NCBI GenBank assembly: GCA_951804945.1
Contig: OX638159.1
Location: forward strand, 45,880,001-45,944,000
Length of the DNA: 64,000 nt
Source: Podarcis cretensis
Lineage: Eukaryota
Direction of reading: 5' to 3'
Shown: positions 7,734 through 47,833 of the stretch, piece by piece
How the letters are laid out: every line of letters begins with the position of its first letter
Numbering within the stretch: position 1 is the first letter of the stretch
Notes under the pieces: generated by a model
The model's input: only the letters and a program-made list of their open reading frames with translations
Told to the model about the DNA's origin: nothing
The model's database searches: none
Position numbers and translations under genes: made by a program

Positions 7734-10081
7734 CTTCCCTCAAAGAATCCTGGAAACTGCACTTGCTTGGAGTTCCCTATCTTGCACACAGAGCTACAGT
7801 TTACCAAGTGGCTTAATCATTCCCTCTTCCTAGGGAGCTCTGGGAATTGTAGCTCCTCTTCCAGATCCCGCTTGCTCATGTGCATGTGCTAAACCTTGGT
7901 TTGGCTTACTGTGACACGTGAACCAAGCCAGTATGTGCATTCCTATCATGAAAACCCATCTAACATGAAAAGTATGCATCTTTGGTCAATTGTGCCTGCT
8001 TTATACCATGCTTTTTAAGAGCAAGTAGAGAAGTGCAAGGTTGTTCACTTTCGATTCATGGGATGGCTGTTTCCACTAGACCTACCTCTAAACCAACATA
8101 GAAAGTGTCCAGGTATTATTCGACTCTAGCTCCCATCAGCCTCAGCCAGCATGGCCAATGGTCAGGGGTGAAGGGAGTTTTAGTTCAGCAGCATCTGAAG
8201 GCAACTATGTTGACTACCACTGATCTTAACAGTCTTCTCTGTTTTAGGTTGGGAAAGCTAAAGTGATTTTGTTGATGCAACTATCAGGAATAGTGTTTTA
8301 TCTAATGTTCCTTTTTGTCTGGACTCAACAGGGTAATGTGCAGTCAAATTTGCATATAGTTAAACTCCAGGCAACAGGGCTGCAGGACACAAATGTATCT
8401 GTCAAAAGTTAATGAGCATCTGTTTACTATACTTGGGCTGCAGTGTTAAAAACATAAATTTAACTCAGCTCCCCCCCCCCCAAGTAAATATGCCTGCTTT
8501 GAACATGAAGGGGTTACCTGCAGACAAAAACAAAACAAAACAAAACAAAAAACCGTAACTTGAATATATAGAGAGACTAAAGCTGATCCCTGTAATTTAG
8601 CTCTTTTGTAGTACAGCAGTCTAAAGAAACAGATAGCTTAGTTGTTTCAGATGTTAGACTTCAATGAGCCAGGATGGATTTCTTTTAAGATGGCACCAAT
8701 TTTTATCTAATTTATTGGCTTTGTAGTCTTTATGAGTTTGCTTTCTTAATGTCAACAATTAAAGAGGGATTCACACTCATTTAGTGGTCACCTTCTTCTT
8801 TTTGGAGTCCATATATTCTTTTATATTTAATTCCCATGTGGATTATTGGTGTGTCTTTAAAAAATAATAATAATCACCTGTCTCACATGCTTCAGGGCCA
8901 GCTTTCAAGATTTAGTAACCACAAGTACAATACCTGAATATCATCTAAAGTTGATGAATAATGACAAGCTAGCTATATGGCTGGCTTCCTATGTGGCAAA
9001 GGAACTGCAGTGGCAGCAATGAGTTATTACAGGACACGAGAACCATTGCAAGAGAATCTATGAAGTGTCAAGCCTGCACTCTTCAGACAAGGGATCATTG
9101 CTCTGTAGTACAGACAGGATAGTGGAGAAATTAACTTCAGTTCACATTTAAAGACAAATTGACCTATTTTGCCATTTCTCTATCTATTTTCTCCATGCCA
9201 TGCATAATTTCATAAATTTCTACCATGTCACCTCTTATTGCCTTTTCTCTGAACTAAAAAGTCCCCATTACTGCAAACTTTTCTTGAAGAAGAGTCATAG
9301 CAAAAGGCAGAATAAACCCTCATAACAGGGCATCTGGGGGGCAGGATTGGGCTGCGCCAATGTAAGATCCACGGGATCCTGGACAGATCCTGCTGCCCTA
9401 AAATGATGGCATTGGGCTCAATTCGGACCTCTTTGCTATGCGTGCCCCTACAACTTCCATCATGGATGGCGCAAGTGTTAGTGCTCTGCATGCAGTGCTG
9501 GCTGTGCCACTTCATTAACTCCTGCCACAGACAGACAGGGGTAAGGATTGCACCCTAAGCCAATATGGCTCTCCTACTACCACTCTGTGTGCAGTACTGG
9601 TCAAATGGAGGCCACATTCACTCCATACATGTAAAACACTGTGATACCAAGAGTCATGGCTTCCTCTAAAGAATTCTGGGAGTTGTTGTTTTTTGCAGGG
9701 ATTAATGGGTTACTGCCTTTGGTTTGATTTTGTATGTTGTGGTCTTGTTGTGAACCGTCCTGAGACCTCTGTGTATAGGGAAGTGTATAAGTTGAATTAA
9801 TAAAACAAAAAATAAAATGGGGGTGTGGAGAGTTGTTAAGGGAATCCTATTCGCTTCCCAGAGCTACAGTTCCCAGAATAGGGAACTATGGGGTCTCCTA
9901 ACAACTCAGAACGCTTAACAAACCACAGCTCCCAGAATTCTTTGGTGGAAGCAATGATTGTTTATGGGACACAGGTGGCGCTGTGGGTTAAACCACAGAG
10001 CCTAGGACTTGCCGATCAGAAGGTCGGTGGTTCGAATCCCTGTGACGGGGTGAGCTCCCGTTGCTCGGTCCCTGCTCCTGC

Positions 10082-10785
10082 CAAAGCCACTCCCGATCTG
10101 GAGAGGGGGTGGGGTTGCGGGCTCACGACCCATCAGCAATCTCGTGGGGCTGGCATCAGCCCCGCGAGTAGCAGGGATTCCCCTAAACTCATTAGTATTC
10201 ACCGCCCTCAGCGGCAGCCAATCGGCTGCCGCTGGGGGCGGGACCTCAGGGATCATTTAAGGTCGGGGCAGCCCTGGCTCGCCCCTTTCGTCTCCGCAGC
10301 AGGCGACGCCCCCCGGAGTCCTTTAACGAACTACCCTTCAAGCTTTGGGGGAGGTGATAGCGTTCCTCCCCCCCCAACCTCATTTCCATAACAATACCCC
10401 TGCCAATGCCTAACCGCCAAAACCAGGAGTTGTGACGTTTTGCTACAAGGTAGGCGAAAAAACCAAGTGGCTATCAAATACAGCCAATTAAGCCAAATGG
10501 AAAAACTCCTACCCGGCCCCATGCGGCGACCAGCCGAAGCCCATAGCAAAGTCCAAATGCAGGCCTAAAGGGCGGGTGGGCGGGAAACCGCTGCTGCTGC
10601 GGAGACGAAAGGGGCGAGCCAGGGCTGCCCCGACCTTAAATGATCCCTGAGGTCCCGCCCCCAGCGGCAGCCGATTGAGTTTAGGGGAATCCCTGCTACT
10701 CGCGGGGCTGACGCCAGCCCCGCGAGATTGCTGATGGGTCGTGAGCCCGCAACCCCACCCCCTCTCCAGATCGGGAGTGGCTTTG
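10082..10785. repeat. Inverted repeat pair from the Ngaro A-type repeat (10082-10302 vs 10594-10785)
   Basis: Near-identical reverse complements. The left arm has 29 extra bp (10191-10219). Confidence 0.95.
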
Positions 10786-11200
10786 CGTGGCGATACCCTC
10801 CCCATCCCAAGAAGAACTAAATAAAGACACCGGACACCAAATTTAAGGTTAATGGGCGAAAATGGCCACAACTTTATTGATTACAGGTAAGAGCGGTATT
10901 GGCTTTAGGCATTGGCCCTACCAGACTATCCGGTCTAACCGGGAAGGGTTAAGCACCAGCCGGGAGAGCCCCCGAGATGCACATCCCTGGGCGCTCCCCA
11001 GGGGGTTACCGCTTGGGAGCGCGCTTTAGGCCCTAGCCTCCGTAGGTTTCGGACGAGGCAACGCCCCCCGGAGTCCTTTAACGAACTACCCTTCAAGCTT
11101 TGGGGGAGGTGATGGCGTTCCTCCCCCCCAACCTCATTTCCATAACAATACCCCTGCCAATGCCTAACCGCCACACGATCCAGGCTCGCCGCCAATACCC

Positions 11201-11775
11201 TCAAACCTGTAACCAATCCCTGATCCCATTAAAAATTTCGGCCAGCCACACATCATTACCATCATCAGAAAGATGCACGCCATCCCCGCGGTAGAGTGCC
11301 ACGCTGCTATAATGGATGCCAGGGTGTTCGATGACACTCCCCCCCATCGCAGTCACTCTACGTGCCACCGAGCGCTCAAGGATCCTCCTGGCTCTATTTA
11401 CCGCCACAGGGTTGGTGGCACCCCGCCAACAGTGCCTCACCAGCAAAGATGACCATATAATTGTAAGTTTTGGACAGGCGACCCGCAATGCCTCTAGGTC
11501 ATTGATAATATGCCACATAACGTCCACCCCCTTCCTGTAGGCCAGGTCATTCTCGCCCAGCTGGATGACCAGCGCCTCGGGTGGGCCCAGTATTGCCAGT
11601 TTATTCGATAACGTTGGGAGGAATTCCTCCCAGCGCATTCCGCGACGAGCGAACCAGGAGATTTTAACATTATTAGGGAGCTGCAGATCATGACAGCCAC
11701 CTCTGCTAAGCGCCCGCCGTCTTGCCCAGTAGACGATGCTATGACCGAGGATCCATAGGCGCACCACACCAACAC
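11201..11775 (-). CDS. SGNH/GDSL-type hydrolase (esterase) carried by the Ngaro element
   Basis: Block I WILGHSIV, block II RGMRW, block III QLGENDL, block V DGVHLS. Frame is open and preceded by a polypyrimidine-CAG acceptor at 11776-11800. Confidence 0.88.
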
Positions 11776-11844
11776 CTGGAAAGATAAGAAAGCAGGAGAG
11801 CCGGATCAGGGAGGGGTGCAAATGGGGGAGGAAAACAACGGGGT

Positions 11845-12723
11845 TTAACGTGATTTCCTTATGTAGCCCTTGTAGGCATTAGACTTCCATCTCCTCATGT
11901 CCATTATCCTTTCGGCCGGTAAGCCCATATGAGCAGCCGTGGTAGCAGCCCCAATGCGGAACGAGTGCGCGGCATAAGCCCTCGCTGGGAGCCCGATGGC
12001 ATCGATCGCCTTGCGCATCACCCCCGTGAACTGGTGTTTTGTAAGGGGGGAGCCATCAGCGTGTATGAAGAAGGAGCCAGGCGTTTTTTGCCTTAGGTTA
12101 AGGAACTTCCTGGCGTCCTTAACAGGGCATGGACCAGCCCTACCAGTAGCCTGCAGACGGACCAAAGCGCCTCTGCCAAGTTGGTCGGTCTTTGAGCTGC
12201 GGATTTTTAGTACAACCTCAGAACTGGACAATGACACATCCTCCAAGAGGAGCCCCCTAATGACGGTAAGCAGGTGGTTGTCGCAAACCACCTCACCTAT
12301 GCGTAGTGCGCTGAAGAAAGCGAAGGAAAATGCTGAAGAGAATAACCTGGTCTCATATCTGGACCAGCAGATGACTCTGAGCTCAGAACGTAATTGCATG
12401 AGAATGTCAAAAGTTATGGGTCTTCTGCTATCTCTAATAGGGGGGTGGGATCTTCGCCACCCCTCTAGCATTTTCCGCACCATGAAGTGTGCACAGGGGT
12501 CGACTGAGAACAGGGCTTTGGAGAAGAACGATATCGCTGCCGAGTGAATGTTAAGGGTTTTGGGGTCCCCGCCTAGGTCGTGAAGACGCACCAGGTACTC
12601 GATAACCTCTGACTTTGACGGGGGCTTGCCCGGTTTAAACCAATCTTTTTTCTGTCTAAACAGAGTGAAATCTAACCACGCCTTGTTGTAGGATCTTAGT
12701 GTAGAGGGTGCAACTGATGACAA
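11845..12723 (-). CDS. Ngaro tyrosine recombinase
   Basis: Catalytic set present: FSALRIGE (R), SKTDQ (K), HSFRIGAAT (HxxR), RWKSNAYKGYIR (W, Y). No ATG at the start (TTG). In-frame TGA just upstream at 12742-12744. Confidence 0.95.
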   Translation of the reverse strand: MSSVAPSTLRSYNKAWLDFTLFRQKKDWFKPGKPPSKSEVIEYLVRLHDLGGDPKTLNIHSAAISFFSKALFSVDPCAHFMVRKMLEGWRRSHPPIRDSRRPITFDILMQLRSELRVICWSRYETRLFSSAFSFAFFSALRIGEVVCDNHLLTVIRGLLLEDVSLSSSEVVLKIRSSKTDQLGRGALVRLQATGRAGPCPVKDARKFLNLRQKTPGSFFIHADGSPLTKHQFTGVMRKAIDAIGLPARAYAAHSFRIGAATTAAHMGLPAERIMDMRRWKSNAYKGYIRKSR

Positions 12724-12731
12724 TACTCCCT

Positions 12732-14314
12732 TTATTGCTTCTCATTGCCAATACTCCAGAGGTGTTCCGGAAACGGCTGCGGCAGCTGCTGCGCATCCGG
12801 CACCAATGAGCGAAACCGTTCCATCTGGAAACGAGACAGCGCATCCGCAATGTTGTTATCAATACCCGGTACAAATTTAGCAGAAGCATGTAAGTTAAGG
12901 CGAAGACAGGAGAGGACAAAGTATCGCAAGAGTGACGCCACTCTAGGGGAGCGAGCGGATTGCTTATTTAATACTGACACCACGGCCTGGTTGTCTGTCC
13001 AAAAGCAGATCCTCCGATCCTTAAACTGCTCTGCCCAGAGATGGATTGCGACCACGATAGGGAAGAATTCTAAGAATGTCAGGTCGCGAAGAATGGGCTT
13101 TCCCTGCCATGAAGAAGGCCAGCGCTGTGCGCACCATTGACCCCTGAAGTAGACGCCGAAGCCCAAAGACCCAGCTGCATCCGAATGTACCTGGAAGTCT
13201 GCACGCAGGGCCAAACTGTCTTGCCATAGTGAAATCCCATTGTAACCGTTTAAAAATTGGAGCCAAACTTGGAGATCGGATTTAACTGCTCTTGAAAGGC
13301 ACACCCTATGATGTGGCGACCTTAGACCTGCGGAGAGTTTAGCCAAACGACCACAAAAAGGCCTGCCAGGGGAAACTACCCGACAGGCGAAGTTGAGGTG
13401 ACCCAGGAGCGATTGGATTTGCCTTAGGGTCACCTTCTTTAGGGGCAGAAGCTGAGAGATGAGCTCTCTTAGGGCAATCAGCTTTTCGGCAGGTAAGCGG
13501 GAAGTTTGAGCGATAGTGTCAAGTTCAATGCCCAGGTAAGTCATCGTGGTAACCGGGCCCTCCGTCTTCTCCTCAGCTAACGGGACACCCAGTTCGTCGG
13601 CCAAGGACTTAAAGGCCTGCAGCAAGGCGTCACAATCATGTGCATTATTTGCTACCAAAATAAAGTCGTCCAAATAATTCCCCACCCCTTCGGAACCAGT
13701 TTTAAATTTTAGAGCCCATTCAAGGAAGGTGCTGAAGGTCTCAAAGGCAGCACAAGCGATCGAGCACCCCATGGGCATTGCTTTATCAATAAAATAGGAC
13801 CCCTGGAATTTAAACCCCAGCCAGCGATAATCCTCCGGGTGAACTGGAAGGAGGCGAAAGGCAGATTCAATGTCGCATTTCGCCATGAAGGCGCCCCTGC
13901 CAAAACCCCTGACCAACTTCACGGCTTGATCAAAAGAAGCGTACTTCACCATGCAGAGCTCCTGAGGGATAGCATCATTAACCGAGGTGCCCTTGGGGAA
14001 GGACAGGTTGTGTATTAGCCGGAATTCGCCAGGAGCCTTTTTTGGAACAATGCCCAGCGGTGAAATATGGAGCTGATCTATGGGAGGGGTTGTGAATGGG
14101 CCAGCAACCCTACCCGCCAAGATTTCCTTCTGGATCTTTTTTAAAGCAATGCCTGGTCTCTCTAAGACTGATTTTTGGTTAGGGGGGCAGCTAGAGTTGG
14201 GAGTGAATGCAACCGGAATTCTGAACCCTGAAGAAAACCCTTCCCCTAGAAGAAGGGCGGCCTGCTTATTGGGATATAATTGCAAAAGGGATCTCAAGGG
14301 TGGGAGTTTAATTG
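12732..14314 (-). CDS. Ngaro reverse transcriptase / RNase H (N-terminally truncated, frame open)
   Basis: Motifs ISPLGIVPKK, FRLIHNLS, KCDIESAFR, MPMGC, YLDDF; RNase H SDAAGSLGFG, LEFFPI, WTDN, NNIADALSR. Residues upstream of 14314 in the ORF track come from SINE/LTR sequence. Confidence 0.95.
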
Positions 14315-14360
14315 GTTGCTCGGTCCCTGCTCCTGCCAACCTAGCAGTTCGAAAACACGT

Positions 14361-15185
14361 TGTCAGAGCTGCCCGAGGTCCCAGCTCACAAAGGACCAAC
14401 GCCAGTTCGTTGTTATATACAAAAGTCTTTATTTAAGTTCAGTTTCGATTTCAAAAGCCGCGGCGCGCAGCTCTACATCTCAAACTCTAGACCGCTGAAG
14501 CTCCATCTGAATCTCCTCCCCCCAGACACCAGTTTAAGACTCTAGCCTTGCTCCACCTCTTCCTTTGCTCTTTCCTCCTCTGGGTCCGCCTGTCCGCTGG
14601 GGTCTTGCCCTTTCTAGACTCTTCTGACGCTGAGTCCCCTGAGTCTTCCCCCTCCCTCCGGCGGGCTTTAGGACCTGGTTCCCAATCCGGGTTTTCTGCC
14701 GTCCCGCGCGCCTGTACATTCAAACTTGGCGCGCGCGCCCAGCCGGCAACCTTTCTCCTGACCGTTACACTGCTCCTGTCACTGCTTCCCCCTTCGGGGA
14801 GGCTAGCTGGACCTGACTTCCCCTCCGTTCCCTCACTCTCCGATAGAGGCGTGGTCAGTCCTGACTCATCTTCTCTCCCTGCTGGAGGAGACGCTGGCCC
14901 TGATACATGGGACTCTTCCCCCCACTACGCTCTGGTGGGGGAGCTGGTCCTGATCTCCCGCTGCTGCTTTGGGAGTCCCCGCTGGCCCCTTGCTTCTGGT
15001 GCATCTCCCCTGGGACCCCCCTTGCCCTGGCCCTCGGCGCCCCCCTCTGGGAATCTTCTGATTCGCTGGAGAAGCTCATGGAATCTCTCGTGCCACTGTC
15101 ATACTCCCCTACGCTGCCCTCAGATTCTTCCCCTTCGCTCTCCATTTCCTCTCTCCCCTGTGCCTCTGCTCCTGAGCCCCTGACA
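14361..15185 (-). mobile_element. Solo LTR (825 bp), family undetermined
   Basis: Termini TGTCAG...CTGACA, perfect 5-bp TSD CACGT (14356-14360, 15186-15190), AATAAA on the minus strand near 14428-14433. Cleanly interrupts a Sauria SINE. Confidence 0.9.
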
Positions 15186-17971
15186 CACGTCAAAGTGCAA
15201 GTAGATAAATAGGTACCGCTCTGGCGGGAAGGTAAACGGCATTTCCGTGTGCTGCTCTGGTTCATCAGAAGCGGCTTAGTCATGCTGGCCACATGACCCG
15301 GAAGCTGTATGCCGGCTCCCTCGGCCAATAAAGCGAGATGAGCGCCGCAACCTCAGGGGTCCCTTTACCTTTACCTTTATGACTGTTTAAAGTGCCATTG
15401 TGGTGTTTTAAACGTGTGGAGTGAATGTAGCCTGATTCACTTCATATCGTGATTTAGCATGGTAACTCAATAGGACAGAGTCTCCACCTGTTGACATGTC
15501 CTAACATCTTGACCCTCCTTCCCTTCCCACTTCAGACAATATGGCCGAACTCTTGGCTCATATTTTTTGGATGAAATTGTTTGAAACACTTCCATAATTA
15601 GCTAGAGCTCTGCCTTGGAGAAAGCTGAGAGTAGGAATGAGTGTGTGTGGGAGAAGGGGAGCCTGCCATGTTCAAGACTGTAAAACTTCTGCAGTTTTAT
15701 AAGTAACACCAGAAAGCGCGAACTCCTGCATGCGGCCGTTCTCATGGCTTTCATTAGCGCAGGGAGTTAATCAAAAACACTTCGACCTCAGGCAAGTACC
15801 ACTCTGCAACGAGAATATTAAAAGGGGTATAAAAACATCATGCTCACTCTTGCATTAATTTGCTTAGTCCTTTTAAAAATAAAAATAATGAAGGAGTTTT
15901 GCCTTTAAGAGAGAGCACTGTAGGTGTCAGCTAACACCTGGCATGTCTTTGAATTTACTATGTTTGTGCAAACAAATGAAATCTGATCAGTCGCTCTAGA
16001 AGGAAGTTACAGAATATCCTCCGGATGGCTCATCCATTGGACAGAGAGATGGGGATGGTTGAAAAATATAGTAAATGGGAGTGGTGAGATGGTGGGAGCA
16101 GAGTGCATATATTCAGAGCTATTTTTCTAGAAAAAAAGAGAAGCCAGAACTCACCACAAACACCTCCCTTGTTCTCTTATAAGGGCAATGGTGCCTACCT
16201 GAGAGGTGCCAGAACTGAGCTCCAATGCATTGCAGCTGAACAAAGCCCTAGCATATATTGGTGCTGAATAGAGGGGAAGGGGATTCCAGAGGGAAAGGGA
16301 AACAAGACATTCCAATGAAAATAAAGGTGAAAAGTGGGGCTTGAAAGGATCTGGAATAGGTTCTTGCAGGGTATGCATAAAGGAGCAGAACTTTAAAAAT
16401 GGTCCCAGCCACCTGTGGGTTCTGGAACTTAAGTGGTGAGAAAGGGGGGCTTTAGTACTAGTCTGAGCATTTGAAAGACTAAAAGTCTGAGCAGAAGGAT
16501 GATAACAGAGGGTTGGAACTTCATCCCTGCTTTCACCTGCTGTTGCATGCTGGGAAGACTGGCTACTAAATGCCCAAGAGTGGTGATTCACTGGTTTGGT
16601 TTGTTTGTGTGGTTTTTTGGTTTGTTTGTTTGTTTTAAACTAAATGAAAGAACAAAAAATATTACCTTAAAAACAACAACACTTTATGCGTTGATTTCTT
16701 TAAAAGCAAAATAAAAAAAAAACCATTCACTTCAGAAAAAGAAAAGAAAAGTATCATGTGCTTAGGAGGCAGCTTCCCTACCACCTCACACTTAGAATAA
16801 AGCCAAGCCAAAGATATCACAAGGTTTTCAGGAAATGGGAGCACTCAGGAAGATGGCAGAATACAGACCACTGGAGAGATAACTTGGAGAATGGAAGAAA
16901 AGACTCTAACAAAATCTCTCCCCACTTGATAATTCTCAAATGCAATTACTTTTCTCTTTAATTGACGGTGGGGAAAACTGTGAAAGAACTTTTCATTGCA
17001 TTATTAATTGTACCTTCATAGCGGATTGTCTTCTGTTAGGGAAATCCCATTATCAACGTTAGGAGAGTTTAAATATTAGATTCATTTGTCCCAGATCTAA
17101 AGCTTTTGGAACTTTATGATGATGTGTGTCCATTATAAGTTATTCTGTTGCACTAATTAATAATAGAGCGGATGCTTTTGAGTATTTCTGTTTACTCAGC
17201 TTGCTCTTCTATGAAACTAATCCACACCTACATTATTTATGATTAATGAGCACCTCTCCAGTTTACAGCAAATAAATTATGCAGAATTAAAGGACAACAG
17301 ACAAATGAATTAGTGGAGCCACACCGATTCAGTCTGAGATTATTACATTTGTTTGCTCATGATTATCCACAAAATATACTGATTACAGCCAAACTGATAT
17401 AACTTCATGGATTTAAAAGAACAGACATTAGTTGAGTTAATGTCTGATGCGCATGAAAGATGGCTTTGGAAGGACAGCTGAGCACATCCTTATGATTTCA
17501 AATAATAATGATTTGCAGTAGTGAGCATGCAAATTTGCTCCCAGATTGCCTTAAATTAACTGCAAATCAGTGACAATGTTGAGTGATCATGTCCTGAAAC
17601 AAAAGGCATCTATTGCGTTTAGAATAAGCCCAGGCCTTCAAAATAAAGGTCCACAAAACACCAATATACAAATATAATTTCTGGAAAGCTGTGCTTATTT
17701 GTTCATTGGCTAAAGATAAATAACCTCTGAACAGGAAATCAGTATTCAGCATCAAATTCACTACAATACATCATTTATTCAACACCAGCAAAATGACAAT
17801 CACAGCTATCAAATCACAGTTCAAAGGGGCAGCGCTTGACAGTTCCCATAGTAGTGAAGAGCATTAATTTGTGTAGAATCAAATTAAAACACACACACAT
17901 GAAAAGAATGTGCTTGGTGATATTATTGTGCCAAGAGCTAATCCTCTACCCCTTACCTGTGTTGCCATGTA

Positions 17972-30532: not shown

Positions 30533-32030
30533 TTGTATACGACAGCTTCCTATGTCTGATAGCTAAAATAACATGGCAGGGGCTGGCTACTGCTTTGTTA
30601 TAAACTTTGGGTAAAGGTAATACTTTCAAGTGAAAAACAAAGTAGACAATAGGAATACAGTTTCATCATGTTACAAAATCATTTAAAATGGATTGAGCAT
30701 ATATCCTCTGCTGGGGTAGCCTATTGCTTCAATGTGAAAAGCTCAGGGTTTATTCTTTGCCCTGAAAAACAAAACAAAACACTGAGTTGATAAAGTGAAA
30801 TTGTGACACCTCTTTTCTGTTTTTTGAATTGCACCATGAGCCCGTTGCAGCACGGATGTGTCAGAGTTCACAAATGTTTGTAGGACTACATCAAGATGAA
30901 TAATTTGCAAATTTGCAAAGGTCTTGAAGGGGAGAGAGCGAGAGAGAGAATGAAACACAATTTTAGAGGTAGTAGGTACCTCTTCTAACCTAGGACCTGT
31001 ACTGAAGATAGCTCCCTTTCAAACCTAGTAGGGGGAACAATTAATAAAGGAACCCATTAAGGTCTGATTGTTGCTGCTAAAAAGGAAGGTTGAATTTCAG
31101 TCCTTTGAAGTAACTGAGAATGATTCAGGCCTCATTACAGAGATATAATCTACATTCATACATTTATGTTAGTGATTCAGATCTATTGGGGCAGATTGAA
31201 TTCCGTTAAATAGTGCATCTTTCCTCTGGAACTTTTCTCAGGCTTTTTCAGGCTAACCTAAGAGGGGGCCTAACAATACAAAGTAGTAGGGTACTTAGGG
31301 ATTCCACTGTGCTATAAAAGAAAGGCTATACAGAAAGTAGGAAAAAAGGAGTGAGATATAATCTAAAAAGCTATGTCAGCTTTTCATTGGGCCTCTGTTT
31401 TGTAAGTGCCCATCCTGTCATCACACAGTATACAGAAAAAAGGAGCCCATGAGTGTTTCTTCACCAAATATTGCACCTGCTGTAGCTGGATTTAATAGGA
31501 TAGTTTCTAAGATTATTTTTAAATAAAACATTTTGTTCATGCAATCAAACCAAAGCTGCAAAGAGGATCTAAGCAGAACTTTTAACAGCAGGAGCATTGT
31601 TGGGGGGTGGGGTGGCCCAAGGGGCTTTTAACCCAGGTCTTTTGCAAATGGCCCTGGATCTCCTACTCTTTCCTTTGCTCTTTTTTAAACTTTATAAATT
31701 TGCCGCATTATTTATTTAAAGCATTTATATACCACTTGCCCACTAGCATTTCGAAGAGTTGAATCGAAAATAACCATACAGAATAGAACATTAAGAATCA
31801 TCATAAAACTGAACAGAAACCTGAACCACTACCTGAAAATGCCTGAAAGCACAGATTCTAGGAGTTATGAGCCATGCATCCAAACCAACAGAAACCCCCC
31901 AAAAGTTCTCTTTGATCTACAAGTGATCAGGTGTTCCTTATCAAATATATACCCCACTATCCCCCCCCCAAAAGCAGCCCAGGGCAGGAAACATATCTGT
32001 AAAAAAATGCAATTGAAATAATAATAATAA

Positions 32031-33060
32031 AAAAAATGATAAAAAGGTAGGGTTCCAGGTGGAGAAATCGAAGTTGGAAACAGAATTGTTAGAACCAAAA
32101 ACTAAGGTATTATCAAGAATGTATAACTTGCTGCTGAAATGGAATACACAAGACGAAATGGTTAAATCGGTTATGATAAAGTGGGCTCAGGATATTGGGC
32201 ATAATATCATGTTTGAGGACTGGGAAAGGTTGTGGACCACTGGGCTGAACTTCACTGCATGTAATGCTTTGAAGGAAAATGTAATGAAAATGATATATAG
32301 ATGGTACATGACCCCAGTTAAACTTGCCAAAATATACCATTTGTCTGATAATAAATGTTGGAAATGTAAAGAACATGAAGGAACATTCTTTCACCTCTGG
32401 TGGACTTGCCCTAGAGTGAAGGCCTTCTGGGAAATGATATATAATGAGTTGAAAAAGGTATTTAAGTATACCTTCACTAAGAAACCAGAGGCCTTCCTTC
32501 TGGGCATTGTCGGCCAGAAGGTGTTAAAGAAGGACCGAACATTTTTTATGTATGCAACAACGGCATCAAGGATACTTATCGCTAAGAGTTGGAAAACTCA
32601 AGATCTACCCACACTGGAAGAGTGGCAGATGCAGCTGATGGACTATATGCAACTGGCCGAGATGACTGGTAGAATTCGAGACCTGGGAGAAGAGAGGGTT
32701 GAAGAAGACTGGAAGAAATTCAAGATTTATTTACAAAAGTATTGTAATTTGGTCGAATGCTAAGAAGGATGCTAGATCATAAATAATTGCCTACCATTGA
32801 ATTAGATTTGAATTTGACGATAAGTGAGATTGAGGAAAACATAAAACTTTTGGAGATTAGATTAAATTAATTGAACAAGATTTAAGAATATAAATAAGAT
32901 GATAAATTGCTGGAAAAAATTTACAATGATGTAAGTGGGAGTGGGAGACGTGAGGGAGCCCAAAGAAGTTTTGAAAAATGTGTTATGATATATGTTATAT
33001 TGTTTATTATTTTTGCAATTTGTATTTAAAAAAAATCTCAATAAATATTTATTAAAAAAA
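32031..33060 (+). mobile_element. L1-clade LINE, 5'-truncated (ORF2 C-terminus + 3' UTR)
   Basis: Open ORF to 32763 with CCHC knuckle CWKC-x8-HLWWTC, AATAAA and A tail. Apparent TSD TGAAATAATAATAATAA (32014-32030, 33061-33077). Confidence 0.92.
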
Positions 33061-37299: not shown

Positions 37300-39183
37300 C
37301 CATTTCCCCCTCTTATTTTCTTTTGAAGTCCAAGGCGTGATTTGGTAAGTCGAGTCATGTTAGCAATTAGAAATTGGCTCATTTAAGGGGGGCTTATTTC
37401 ACGGTGAGTTGGGGAGTGATAAATCTTGAGACGCTCAAAAGGAAGAGTAAGCTTTAAAAGTGCAGTCCCCCCCTTTTTTTGTTTCAGCAACGGAAGCCAG
37501 AAATCATTGATTCGTTAAAATAAATAGGAGAGGGAGTAAGAGAGAAAGAAAGAAAGAAAAAGAGAGAGCGAGAGCGCGCTGGAGACCTCCAGGGAAGTTA
37601 GCAGGAGGGGAAGCAAGGGGAGCTAATTATGGATATCTGTATTTCCCTCGGACCAGCTTATAAACTGCTTTCTTAGAATTTGTCTGCACTTATATCCTTT
37701 CTTCCAGATCTTACCCACACGGCCTCCTTTCTTTATAGAAGGGGTGCTTGGGGCGGGAGGAGGGAGAGAGAGAGTCCGTCAGCAAAGCAACAAGCACCAG
37801 GTGGCTCTCAACTACACACTGCCAAAAAAATAAAATAAAAATCCTTCTCTAGAAAACAAGTTTTAAAAAGAGGGGGAGAAGGAGGAGGGCTCCCTAGAGG
37901 GGATTGGCTGAGAGGGGAAGACAGGAAAATTAGTAAAGCATGAGTCTCTCAAGCCATGCTGGTGGCCAGAAGGACTGCTTGAGGAGCAATTAGCTGAAGG
38001 CTGCTGCTTGCTGCTGCTGCTGCTGCTATAGGAGAAGAAGCAAAAAAGAAAAAAAGAAAGGGAAAGGAAAAGGGAAAAGGGCAGATTCTGTTGGAGTCTC
38101 TCTCTCTCTCTCCCGCTCCCAGTAGGCGCTTGCTCATTGCAACTTGCAAAAGGGTTTCAGATGTCCCAGCACCGCTGCTTGACCCCCTGCAAATAAAACT
38201 TGACCACCAGAGGCACGTCCCACCTCTCTCCTTCCTAATCTCTAGCATTTAGGATACAGCTTCCAACCTGTTGGCAACCCTACGGAGAGAGAGGGGGAAA
38301 GGACTTGTTTTGCAATCTTTTTTTCTTTTTCTTTTTTCAGGAAATATATATATGCAGATATTTGAGATACAGATATCTATCTATTTCTGGAAGATTCAAG
38401 AGAGGGGGGTGCAAGCCCCTGTTTTCTGCTTCTGAGAAGGACTGCGTTTCTGGGCTTCGGTGAGAGGAAGGTGCAGAAGTTGTTCAGGGTGGGGGGGGGG
38501 CGCTGACCCCCCTCCCGTTTCGTTTTTGCTTTCTCCCGGATTTTTTTCCCCCTTGTCCACCACCAGCTCCGCTGCAAGTGTCGTCGCTCACCCGCCTTGT
38601 CATCTCTCTCTCTCTTTGCAGACTTTCCCTCCTTGCCTCTGCGAGAGATGGTGCACAGGGCGAAATAGCCTCGCGCGCTCGCAGCAGCAACAGCAGCAGC
38701 AGCAGCAAAGCGGCAAACCAGCCCCCAGGAGTTTGGTGATGGGGGGTTGAAAGGCCTGGGGGAAGAGAAAGAAAGAAGGAGGGAGAAAGAAAAAGGAAAA
38801 GATCGCCAAGAAAATCTGCAAGCCAAACAACCGCCTGAGCTCGCCCAGAAAACTGTAAGGCAACTTTGTGTGTGTGCGTGTGCGCGCTTGTGCGTTTTTG
38901 GAAAGGACTCGAAGGATTAATAAAAGGAGGGCGAAGGAAACCGAACCAAGGAGAGCGCGTGGAAGTGGGGGAACCCAAAGTGGAGCGAAGGCACCGTTTC
39001 CTGCGGAGCGCTTGGCCCCCTGAGGCATGGAAGTCGGCGCCCTCCCTCCAGGCCAGATCAGCGCGCCGAGGTCTGTGAGCAGGAGGGCTCTCCATCAGCT
39101 GTCCCCTCGCCTCTCCCCGGGGTTCCCCCTTCCAGTATGTTTCTTTTCATGAGGCATCTCCCCGCGCCCAGAGCTTCAGTACA
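37300..39183 (+). promoter_or_regulatory. FGF10: FGF10 promoter, CpG island and long 5' leader
   Basis: TE-free, CpG-rich (continuing to ~40.2 kb), GA-rich tracts, GC box GGGGCGGGA near 37750, (GCT)n near 38000-38027 and (CAG)n near 38682-38707, directly upstream of the ATG. TSS cannot be placed. Confidence 0.75.
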
Positions 39184-39202
39184 ATGTGCAAATGGAGACT
39201 GA
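39137..39202 (+). promoter_or_regulatory. Overlapping upstream ORF (21 aa, [21 protein letters not shown]) across the FGF10 start codon
   Basis: ATGs at 39137 and 39149 share a frame, are out of frame with 39184, and stop at TGA 39200-39202. Confidence 0.7.
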
Positions 39203-39577
39203 TACAGGGTGCCTCAGCCTTCGCCCACCTGCCTTCCTCCTCCTCCTCTTCTTCCTCCTCCTCCTCCTCCCGCCGCCGCCGCAGCTTCGTCTTCCTGCTG
39301 CTGCTCTGGATGTCGTCGTCCCTGGCTGCCCCCTGCCATGAGCACGGCCAAGACATGCTGCTCCTCAAGGCCACCAACTCTTCGTCGTCGTCGTCGCCAT
39401 CCTCCTCCTCCTCCTCTTCCTCCTCCTCGCCCGCCAGCGCGGGGAGACACGTGCGGAGCTACAACCATCTCCGAGGAGACGTGCGCTGGAGGAAGCTCTA
39501 CTCTTACAACAAGTTCTTCCTCCGGATTGAGAAGAACGGCAACGTCAGCGGCACCAAGAGGGAGAACTGCCCTTATA
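39184..39577 (+). CDS. FGF10: Fibroblast growth factor 10, coding exon 1 (131 codons + 1 nt, phase-1 donor)
   Basis: Translation MCKW...GQDM...ATNSSSS...[47 protein letters not shown] matches the FGF10 N-terminus. Donor A|GTAAGT at 39577/39578 lies where exon 1 ends in other vertebrates. The ORF-track extension to 39747 is intron read-through. Confidence 0.98.
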
Positions 39578-45698: not shown

Positions 45699-47833
45699 TC
45701 TTTTTTAAAAAAACAAATATAATATTTATTACTTTTAAACCTTACAAAAAAGAAGAAAAAGAAAAGAAAAGAAGCAAAAGAAAGAAAAAAACAATACAAT
45801 ACAATATATAAACAATACACAACGCAACATTAACACATTAGACTAAACAACACAGAGCAAAAACAATTTAAAAACATACATCATACCATTTCAATGCCTT
45901 ATCTTCCATTCCCTTTATTCATCGACCTCCTCTCACCTTCCTTTTTGTATTCCACTTCTATTAATTGTTTCAGCAATTCCTTTCCATCTTTCTCTATTTT
46001 CTGTCATATGATTATCTTAACTTATTTTAACCTTATTTTCCATTAATACTATAATACTTATTTATGCTTAACTCCTTATAACATTTCTACTAAAGCCATA
46101 TAATTTCATTCCAACATTTTTCTGACACTCATTAATTTTACAGTATTTCTATAAATAGACTTTAAACTTTTTCCAATCTTCTTCCACCGTCTCTTCTCCC
46201 TGGTCTCGGATTCTGCCAGTCATTTCCATCAATTTGATATAGTCCATCAACCTGGTGATCTTCTGTCCGAGGCTCTTAACTCTTTTCCAAGTCCCTTCTG
46301 CAGATCTTCTTCATATTTATACATGCACTTTACTTTGTCTTCTTCTGATCTTGTTCTTAATTTCCTTCCTTTGATACTGAAGAGTAGATCTCGGGGAAGC
46401 TCCGACCTAGCAATGTTTTTATTCCTTCTTGACAGGTCAGCCAAATCTCCGTAGTTAAAACTAAAATCCAAAAGATATTTCAGGACGTGTTTCAAAATCC
46501 TTCCAAATCTGAAAGTCCCCACAGCTCCAATCTCCTCCTGACCCAGGTCCAGGTCCCAAAGGTCGGTAAATCCCTGCATGAGGTGATCTATCCAACTTTC
46601 CTTCTCCAGTCCAAGCAGGGCTCCAATCCTCAAAATCTGACTTTCTCTGAATTCAATCATAGAAGGCAACAACTTATAGTCATCAGATTGCCTCTGTAAG
46701 GCTGGGGCTCTCTCCCTCTCCACTTGTATTACTTTAGGTTCAACAACAACAACTTTCTCCCTCATCTTCCCCTCAGTTTGCCATGTCAAAGTAGATTCCT
46801 GTATCGATTCCTGAATAGTTTCTGTATAGATGTTCACTTTTTGTCCCAAGTTATCAATTTTGATAGTCATCAGATCCGTCTTCTTGGGGAGCTGTTCCAA
46901 TGAATCACTTATCTTACATAATGCAATCACTAAGGCTTCTTCTGTCGACATTCTTAACTGATCCAAGGTCAATACCTGGTTCTCACGGTTTTTTATCTTG
47001 CAGCTGGAGATTCCACCAGCTCAACTCTTGTAACAGTTTCAAAGGCTCCCTCTAGAGGGAAACAATTTCTATTTGTATCAATCCTTTTAAGCACAGTTCA
47101 AACAATAAAATTAGTTTCAATTTTCAGTTGCTTTTACTCCTTTTTAAACGCAGAAGGAGACAATGGAAACAATGTATTTCTCTTATTTAACTAGCTGTCA
47201 ACAGTCAGTCTTACTAGCAGCCCGTTTCCAGGTTCAGAGCGGTGGTAACTTAACTTTCTTCACTCTCTCCTGCAGGCTTACGCGATCCAAAATTTCCCCC
47301 CTCTTCTCCTGCTTCCAAGGCGGGTTTAATGATTTTAGCCGATGGAGGTTTAATCCTTTACAGAGGACTTTCCAAGACTTTAGCTTGCAAGCTCTTTGCT
47401 TCAACCTATTTACAAAAGGGGAAGGCGGACTTCCTGTTTGAAACCTCCCTGTTTTGGTGCCAAATTAAGACGTTTAAAAATCCAATTTTCTGTTCTACTC
47501 ACGGGTGGTTGTTTAGGATCAAATTGTCCACAGGAAAAAGTCAGCGCTCTCCGGCAACAGCAGTGCGGCTTCACTCTGTGAAAGAAGCAGTCAATTTGAA
47601 GCACCGTGCCGCTCACCCCACGTTGCTCCGGATCCCCGAAACCGGGTCTCCCTGCGAGTAGGGGAGGCGCAAAAGGTGCCAGCCGAATCCCACATTCACA
47701 GGCTTCTCCCGTCTGTGATTTTTAGTGGGTCTCCGCCTTCGCCGTGGCAGCCAGACCCTGATTTCCACGGAGCAAATTCCTCCTGATCAGAGGAATTCCA
47801 CCATTGTCGGAGGTGCCAACCCGGAAGTCCCAC
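45699..47833 (-). mobile_element. Full-length non-autonomous L1 derivative (HAL1-like), inserted in a hAT MITE
   Basis: 13-bp TSD GGTACTGCACTTC (45686-45698, 47834-47846), CpG-rich 5' end GGACTTCCGGGTTGG, ORF1-like ORF 46247-46972, last ~40 codons of ORF2 (~46125-46250), 3' UTR, AATAAA and A tail. Confidence 0.88.
46247..46951 (-). CDS. Diverged L1 ORF1p-like protein (coiled coil plus partial RRM/CTD)
   Basis: Heptad-like N-terminal half, then LRIGALLGLEKES, ELPRDLL and FSIKGRK motifs reminiscent of L1 ORF1p. First ATG at 46951. Confidence 0.6.
   Translation of the reverse strand: MSTEEALVIALCKISDSLEQLPKKTDLMTIKIDNLGQKVNIYTETIQESIQESTLTWQTEGKMREKVVVVEPKVIQVERERAPALQRQSDDYKLLPSMIEFRESQILRIGALLGLEKESWIDHLMQGFTDLWDLDLGQEEIGAVGTFRFGRILKHVLKYLLDFSFNYGDLADLSRRNKNIARSELPRDLLFSIKGRKLRTRSEEDKVKCMYKYEEDLQKGLGKELRASDRRSPG

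Follow-up and report, generated by a model that had tools for sequence, protein, structure and literature searches.

An SGNH hydrolase frame in a Ngaro retrotransposon copy of Podarcis cretensis as a candidate spliced exon of ORF1

The window analysed here, a stretch of 64,000 nucleotides from Podarcis cretensis (contig OX638159.1, positions 45,880,001 to 45,944,000), contains a minus-strand copy of a tyrosine recombinase (YR) retrotransposon of the Ngaro type. According to the open reading frame list, its frames follow one another in the order reverse transcriptase/RNase H (RT/RH), tyrosine recombinase, and SGNH hydrolase. The RT/RH frame is open from 12732 to 14314 (Pfam RVT_1, E=2e-13), is cut at its natural N-terminal end, and carries YLDDF and HSFRIG motifs, which we take to fit Ngaro. 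It ends inside the start of the YR frame, as in Ngaro elements, and the YR frame is itself open (11845-12741; Phage_integrase, E=2e-4) down to a stop codon at 11845-11847. This copy has a substitution at one residue of a conserved YR motif, near 11895, that most other copies lack (408/432 in depth, X1). RVT_1 is the only Pfam match in the RT/RH frame, there is no room for a methylase, and the methylase that follows RNase H in DIRS-like and PAT-like elements is absent. The combination found here, a hydrolase after the YR and no methylase, is the one given for Ngaro in the available text of a published description (PMC7192593).

Downstream of the hydrolase frame lies a set of split direct repeats. 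The matched part of B1 (11056-11173, minus strand) and a cut-short B2 (10301-10419, minus) agree at 97.5% over 119 columns, with two mismatches and one gap, and flank an A-type segment (10420-10880, minus) that has an AATAAA at 10878 and an approximate border with B1; it is labelled A2 from the B-A-B order. A1 is gone with the 5' end, and an extra, inverted part of the A repeat (10085-10302, plus strand) is joined to the cut B2 at the 3' end. This piece aligns with 10594-10785 of A2, apart from two mismatches and a 29-nt indel. The inverted 3' repeat could be read as DIRS-like (an ITR plus an ICR), but this was rejected because B1/B2 direct repeats and a hydrolase are present and a methylase is absent. 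The inverted piece and B2 share a few bases where they join (within 10085-10419), and this 3' end could be a fold-back or mis-primed cDNA with a bearing on Ngaro first-strand priming.

The insert is bounded by exact 25-nt target duplications on the plus strand (10060-10084 and 14315-14339). The left copy lies inside a SINE whose 5' part is 9961-10084; the SINE runs on to 14360 and resumes at 15186-15356. RT begins right at the insert edge, the 5' repeat is missing, and tblastn found no match in the window to ORF1, which is present as a gag-like frame in a sister family. The long duplication, truncated 5' end, and inverted 3' piece suggest that a cDNA fragment was captured by repair and not integrated by the recombinase. 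A candidate empty site, drawn from contig joints across the element, was rejected, as the joints derive from other SINE copies.

Judged by its repeats, which differ at only 2/192 and 2/118 bases, the copy is young, and with ORF1 lost it is also a relic; its open frames therefore reflect youth rather than present selection. Because the donor exon has been lost, this copy is probably unable to make the enzyme itself. Among 40 listed differences from other copies, a biased sample of about 1,500, 17 fall in coding frames (8 silent, 9 changing), and of the six listed in the SGNH exon three change a residue. In runs X5 and X6, which are RNA by our guess, coverage is mainly over the SINE. Contigs on the terminal repeats (10362-11285) are up to ~31,000 deep, against ~90-1,000 on 11286-14211 (X1, X2); depth does not equal copy number here, and the contrast hints at many short derivatives that keep only the ends.

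The surroundings include several unrelated features. Twenty bases separate the Ngaro fragment from a solo LTR of 825 bp (14361-15185), which lies in the same SINE, has inverted ends of 6 bp, and is flanked by a 5-bp target duplication. A fibroblast growth factor gene (Pfam FGF, E=5e-4), which we take to be FGF10, has its first coding exon at 39160-39570 on the plus strand; the Ngaro fragment is ~25 kb upstream of it, on the other strand. Exonisation of the window copy by a host gene was considered and set aside, as this FGF-like exon, 25 kb off and on the opposite strand, was the only host exon found by a search whose range lay above small exons. Open frames at 32017-32763 (plus) and 46247-47020 (minus) have no Pfam match and are presumably the 3' end of a LINE ORF2 and ORF1 remnants.

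The SGNH frame is free of stops for 225 codons (11201-11878, minus) and directly follows the YR frame with a slight overlap. Its proposed exon (11201-11775) comprises two bases of a split Gly codon and 190 codons, followed by a stop. Blocks I, II, III, and V are all present: a GHS block (Gly codon at 11746, catalytic Ser at 11740-11738), an RRGM block (11647, with the block II Gly at 11641-11639), a GEND block (11557, with its Asn at 11551-11549), and a DGVH block that supplies Asp-x-x-His (Asp at 11284-11282, catalytic His at 11275-11273). The frame list and motif positions thus bear out the initial annotation, which had described an open frame of about 190 codons with four SGNH blocks after the YR.

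Pfam Lipase_GDSL_2 matches the frame at E=0.012 and 16.6 bits, below its curated cut-off of 32.9, and a single-sequence phmmer search of the domain against the PDB gave no real match. The domain, as modelled from 16 sequences (pLDDT 90), has a flavodoxin-like alpha/beta/alpha fold; Foldseek returned 160 SGNH hydrolase matches to the model at E<=0.001, and the best VIA-align match has a Z of 18.9 (rmsd 2.9, 175 aligned). A profile of 32 sequences finds its best solved relative in the ORF1 esterase of the LINE element ZfL2-1 (PDB 4c1b, E=5e-11; next match 5e-7), and bacterial GDSL enzymes and PAF-AH rank behind it. The SGNH identity and the kinship with LINE ORF1 esterases that had been proposed from the letters alone both hold. 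The domain is strongly basic, with a pI of 9.8.

How such a domain could be translated is less obvious. The first in-frame Met is that of block II, past the catalytic Ser. The sole in-frame ATG upstream, at 11890 inside the YR Arg-Trp codons (11879-11890), runs into a stop three codons on (11881-11879). A candidate 3' splice site (11776-11811, minus) lies exactly at the domain start, before the first strand. It consists of a heptamer at 11811-11805 that resembles the branch-point consensus, a tract with 18/20 pyrimidines, and a CAG whose AG is at 11777-11776, so that the junction reads CAG/G and the exon would begin at 11775 in phase 1. None of the other minus-strand AGs of the element, which total 241 with this one, has as high a pyrimidine count, and across the window 14 of 4512 attain it. 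With no usable ATG ahead of the Ser, and with the most pyrimidine-rich acceptor at the domain start, the frame is probably not a free-standing gene and most likely a spliced 3' exon. The initial annotation had placed an intact gene at 11201-11821. Its SGNH part stands at 11201-11775, and 11776-11821, with the pyrimidine tract and acceptor, looks like intron; "intact" does not survive, given the lack of a start codon before the nucleophile and the 5' truncation of a copy without ORF1.

The domain belongs to a large family (1590 representatives at E<=1e-10). Its closest proteins are from Podarcis, Zootoca, and Lacerta, at up to 78% identity, and this lacertid proximity, together with the RT/RH-YR-SGNH order, upholds the earlier assignment to a squamate Ngaro element. 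Named members come from lizards, geckos, frogs, salamanders, caecilians, mussels, oysters, and abalone. The family is thus neither reptile-specific nor young, contrary to the first reading of it as a young reptile family. Scans of viral and metagenome contigs found no relatives. Six gene models contain both domains; measured against the window, their SGNH/YR identities are 51/55, 52/62, 35/38, 38/31, 35/33, and 36/34%. Among 159 element-type SGNH domains, a class defined by exclusion that includes a few host fragments, 150 are scorable; 134 of these keep the S, G, N, D, and H residues and 139 keep the triad. Since SGNH and YR have diverged about equally and 134/150 keep the catalytic residues, long-term constraint on the family is supported at the sequence level. 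The lipid binding and particle assembly suggested at the outset are candidate roles by analogy with ZfL2-1. Element-type domains are also basic as a class (median pI 10.0; above 9 in 89% of 158).

Relatives of the element suggest where the missing start might come from. We searched with the N-terminal 222 residues of P0056, a gene model of the sister family, and obtained 26 matches whose common sequence extends through an Arg/Lys-rich motif and a Ser run to a Gly. After the shared Gly, 16 of the 26 continue toward a Gag core and a CCCH finger (one of them, P0213, stops early), and the other 10, all annotation models and not assembled transcripts, run straight into the SGNH domain. In the shared part, the N-termini of SGNH forms are each 65-89% identical to their own best Gag form. 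The residue after the switch Gly in Gag forms, inside the Ser tract, is Thr in 15/16 and Met in 1/16, both with A-initial codons, and the residue before it is Ser, Thr, or Ala in 29/29 forms listed. Read from protein residues and not from DNA, these positions would spell a CAG/GTA donor, although the 16/16 Gag forms are not 16 independent cases because sister-family members are related.

Three states can be seen at one junction: unspliced in P0235 (...CLFIS-G), spliced in P0203, and Gag in P0209. In P0235, which clusters with P0203, the intron end is translated as LILFCLFIS and leads into the domain at the shared Gly. The family that contains the paired P0203 and P0209 types is sister to that of the window, with 44-45% SGNH identity. 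P0003, the model closest to the window (78%), joins at the same Gly. Mussel P0091 and P0029 have the same kind of switch at Gly, where the Gag side reads Gly-Met, and oyster P0237, a protein called on a 1136-base Logan contig, reads through an ORF1-SGNH-type junction. More broadly, a YR, RT, or Gag-core match is missing from 59/72 element-type proteins that carry long N-extensions, and residues with T-rich codons make up 0.24 of short leaders (n=20) versus 0.12 of long ones (n=71; p=0.003).

We therefore consider it likely that alternative splicing yields an ORF1-esterase protein, of which the SGNH frame would be the esterase exon. In a complete element, the genomic RNA would give ORF1 (Gag), RT/RH, and YR. 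A spliced RNA would use a phase-1 donor inside ORF1, just past the Arg/Lys-rich motif, skip the Gag core, RT/RH, and YR, and join the ORF1 N-terminus to the SGNH domain. The product would run from a short helical hairpin through a disordered linker to the basic motif and the basic esterase. The predicted model of a spliced sister protein agrees: two helices (35-68) precede a long disordered linker, after which come the basic motif and the esterase. A complex prediction for the shared ORF1 helices scored 0.09 against a mark of 0.34. The ORF1-SGNH junction rests mainly on gene models and the window acceptor, and some observations count against splicing. Annotation junctions are noisy: in P0006, P0008, P0009, P0018, P0019, P0029, and P0058 the same acceptor is joined to a piece of YR or RT or to an unrelated exon. 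P0237 may come from an element that is a deletion derivative. Among 59 fusions just 15, of which 14 are lacertid, have the basic motif no more than 45 residues from the domain.

The same domain also appears in host proteins. Ngaro-type SGNH domains end long ZNF318-like and matrin-like proteins; the protein names are source annotations, and the grouping is by motifs shared in the sequences. In the ZNF318-like group (P0031-P0034, P0037, P0038, P0023, and P0118, from teleosts, a gecko, and an anguid lizard), the SGNH C-terminus mostly keeps catalysis, with all five residues intact in 14/16 domains. The matrin/ZNF638-like group (P0020-P0022, P0024, P0062, P0043, P0044, P0057, and P0068, from lacertids and geckos) carries a single SGNH domain or up to six in tandem; these are nearly all catalytically dead (0/15 with all five residues), and one His-to-Asn change is common to the Podarcis and Zootoca proteins. 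The host proteins that end in SGNH include teleost si:dkeyp-121d4.3, which has cold-shock domains (one member comes from a Logan contig), gecko and anguid "ZNF318-like" proteins, and lacertid "ZNF638-like" proteins. Gecko and herring-family proteins carry two to six SGNH copies. Herring-family P0048 and P0054 combine cold-shock domains with four degenerate SGNH domains, and P0048 also has a PRY-SPRY end, which recalls immune receptors.

In a tree of a 51-row subset of 213 domains, squamate fusion domains group among squamate element domains, and a single clade for ZNF318-like domains is rejected (p-AU 4e-10). Host genes seem, from these sequences, to have gained the SGNH exon independently, several times. 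Some fusions may instead be read-through into a nearby element; the SGNH domain of P0024 is nearly the same as that of element model P0055. A portable phase-1 terminal exon would account for repeated capture by host nuclear RNA-binding genes, and the captured domains may track or counter retroelement ribonucleoproteins.

As to what the ORF1-esterase does, analogy with ZfL2-1 suggests that the basic motif would bind element RNA, that the esterase would bind acidic membrane lipids, and that it would dock or release the ribonucleoprotein through a slow hydrolysis step. Membrane docking or release of this kind is the most likely function, though a tentative choice with a nearly even chance of being right. 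A real if lesser possibility is deacylation of a host factor or lipid signal, or non-catalytic RNA binding in the manner of the OSK domain of Oskar, in place of membrane targeting. The retention of catalytic residues in 134/150 scorable element-type domains suggests real turnover, and the basic charge of the domain (pI 9.8; family median 10.0) is in keeping with this alternative, as it is with binding to acidic phospholipids. The matrin-like host fusions have lost catalysis throughout (0/15), which points to a non-catalytic use of the domain. The match to OSK itself is good (Z 16.7, rmsd 2.4, 159 aligned), but OSK is one among many generic SGNH matches.

Other routes of expression fare less well than splicing. 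The domain might be a stand-alone, overlapping ORF4, begun by reinitiation or an internal promoter at the ATG inside the YR Arg-Trp codons and giving a single-domain esterase with a leader of 25-40 residues; on that reading, the leader of the window copy would have been interrupted by a nonsense change. In its favour, the ATG at 11890 is in frame, and P0001, P0148, and P0235 start at the equivalent ATG, are open from there, and have leaders compatible with the YR tail in that frame, an observation that also counts against splicing. Of the short-leader rows scored, 4/25 are hits, with a background of 4/123, and the available text of the Xenopus study has all four ORFs overlapping (10.1101/2021.08.05.455354). 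However, the frame is closed in the window copy, ORF callers take any available ATG, and leaders vary in length and sequence. The leader of P0053 fits the YR tail in the other frame, so the frame relation between YR and SGNH is not fixed. A stand-alone ORF would also leave the Gag/SGNH switch and the pyrimidine tract unexplained, and we regard it as unlikely. Less probable again is that a frameshift, read-through, or a short intron fuses SGNH to YR, so that the esterase would travel with the recombinase: gene models P0018, P0047, P0006, P0009, and P0058 do join YR to SGNH, but their junctions vary, some cut the YR before its catalytic residues, and the YR of the window ends in the stop at 11845-11847. 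Finally, a neutral passenger whose frame is open only because the copy is young would suit the window copy alone (repeat differences of 2/192 and 2/118; 3/6 listed exon differences residue-changing) and is scarcely credible for the family, where it is contradicted by kept catalytic residues and by SGNH and YR identities that fall in step between lizards (51 vs 55%) and molluscs (38 vs 31%).

Taken as a whole, the splicing reading would mean that Ngaro elements from molluscs to lizards make Gag and an ORF1-esterase by alternative splicing, in convergence on the esterase ORF1p of LINEs, and that host RNA-binding genes repeatedly captured the exon. We hold this full combination as plausible, with somewhat less than an even chance of being correct in all its parts. 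The Ngaro hydrolase ORF is on record with neither a function nor a mode of expression assigned to it, and the splice junction would name the protein as an ORF1 N-terminus plus esterase. If true, YR retrotransposons would gain a retrovirus-like spliced RNA and a link to lipid-binding LINE ORF1p, and the presence of one domain at the end of several unrelated ZNF318-like and matrin-like proteins, which looks like repeated domestication, would be explained. The window copy itself is an ordinary relic.

The SGNH cargo is real and of a kind already known from amphibian Ngaro elements. Xenopus DIRS-53_XT and DIRS-54_XT carry an SGNH ORF after the YR, with no proven function in the available text of the source (10.1101/2021.08.05.455354), and similar amphibian ORFs appear in the accessible parts of two further reports (PMC7192593; PMC6681497), in agreement with the initial annotation. 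As far as these sources are available, the Xenopus elements resemble the lacertid one in RT/RH, YR, SGNH order, in B1-A2-B2 split direct repeats, and in the lack of a methylase (10.1101/2021.08.05.455354; PMC7192593). They differ in that the Xenopus hydrolase is described there as a fourth overlapping ORF, whereas the lacertid one reads as a spliced ORF1 exon; the string "splic" is absent from the main text of the Xenopus study (10.1101/2021.08.05.455354). In the mostly open-access literature searched, with Repbase Reports outside its scope, we found neither splicing or ORF1 fusion of YR-element hydrolases nor host SGNH fusions, and the spliced ORF1-esterase form and the repeated host captures are likely new within that literature. 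SGNH cargo is likewise found, in the consulted parts of the sources, as a GDSL ORF3 in bdelloid LTR and Athena elements (PMC5408684) and as texim genes in fish Helitrons (PMC4021074), but these are other element classes, likened by type of cargo alone.

ZfL2-1, the best solved profile match (4c1b), offers a closer parallel. Its ORF1p is ordered as coiled coil, arginine-rich motif, and esterase (PMC3905857), and the same order of helix, basic motif, and esterase is predicted for the Ngaro product. Two positions are specific to transposon esterases of this type. The equivalent of ZfL2-1 Ser228 is Ser in 139/159 domains and Thr in 18/159, and Ser in the window; that of His191 is His in 104/159 and Gln in 54/159, and Gln in the window. 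The two would differ in how the esterase is reached: in the LINE it is part of a constitutive ORF1p, whereas in Ngaro it would be an alternative ending to a Gag-type ORF1, encoded ~3.5 kb or more downstream. Retroviral env is expressed from a spliced subgenomic RNA, and the proposed Ngaro arrangement is similar in that a 3' ORF would be reached by splicing out the pol region. The product would differ from env, being not a transmembrane or fusion protein but a cytosolic esterase joined to ~220 residues of ORF1.
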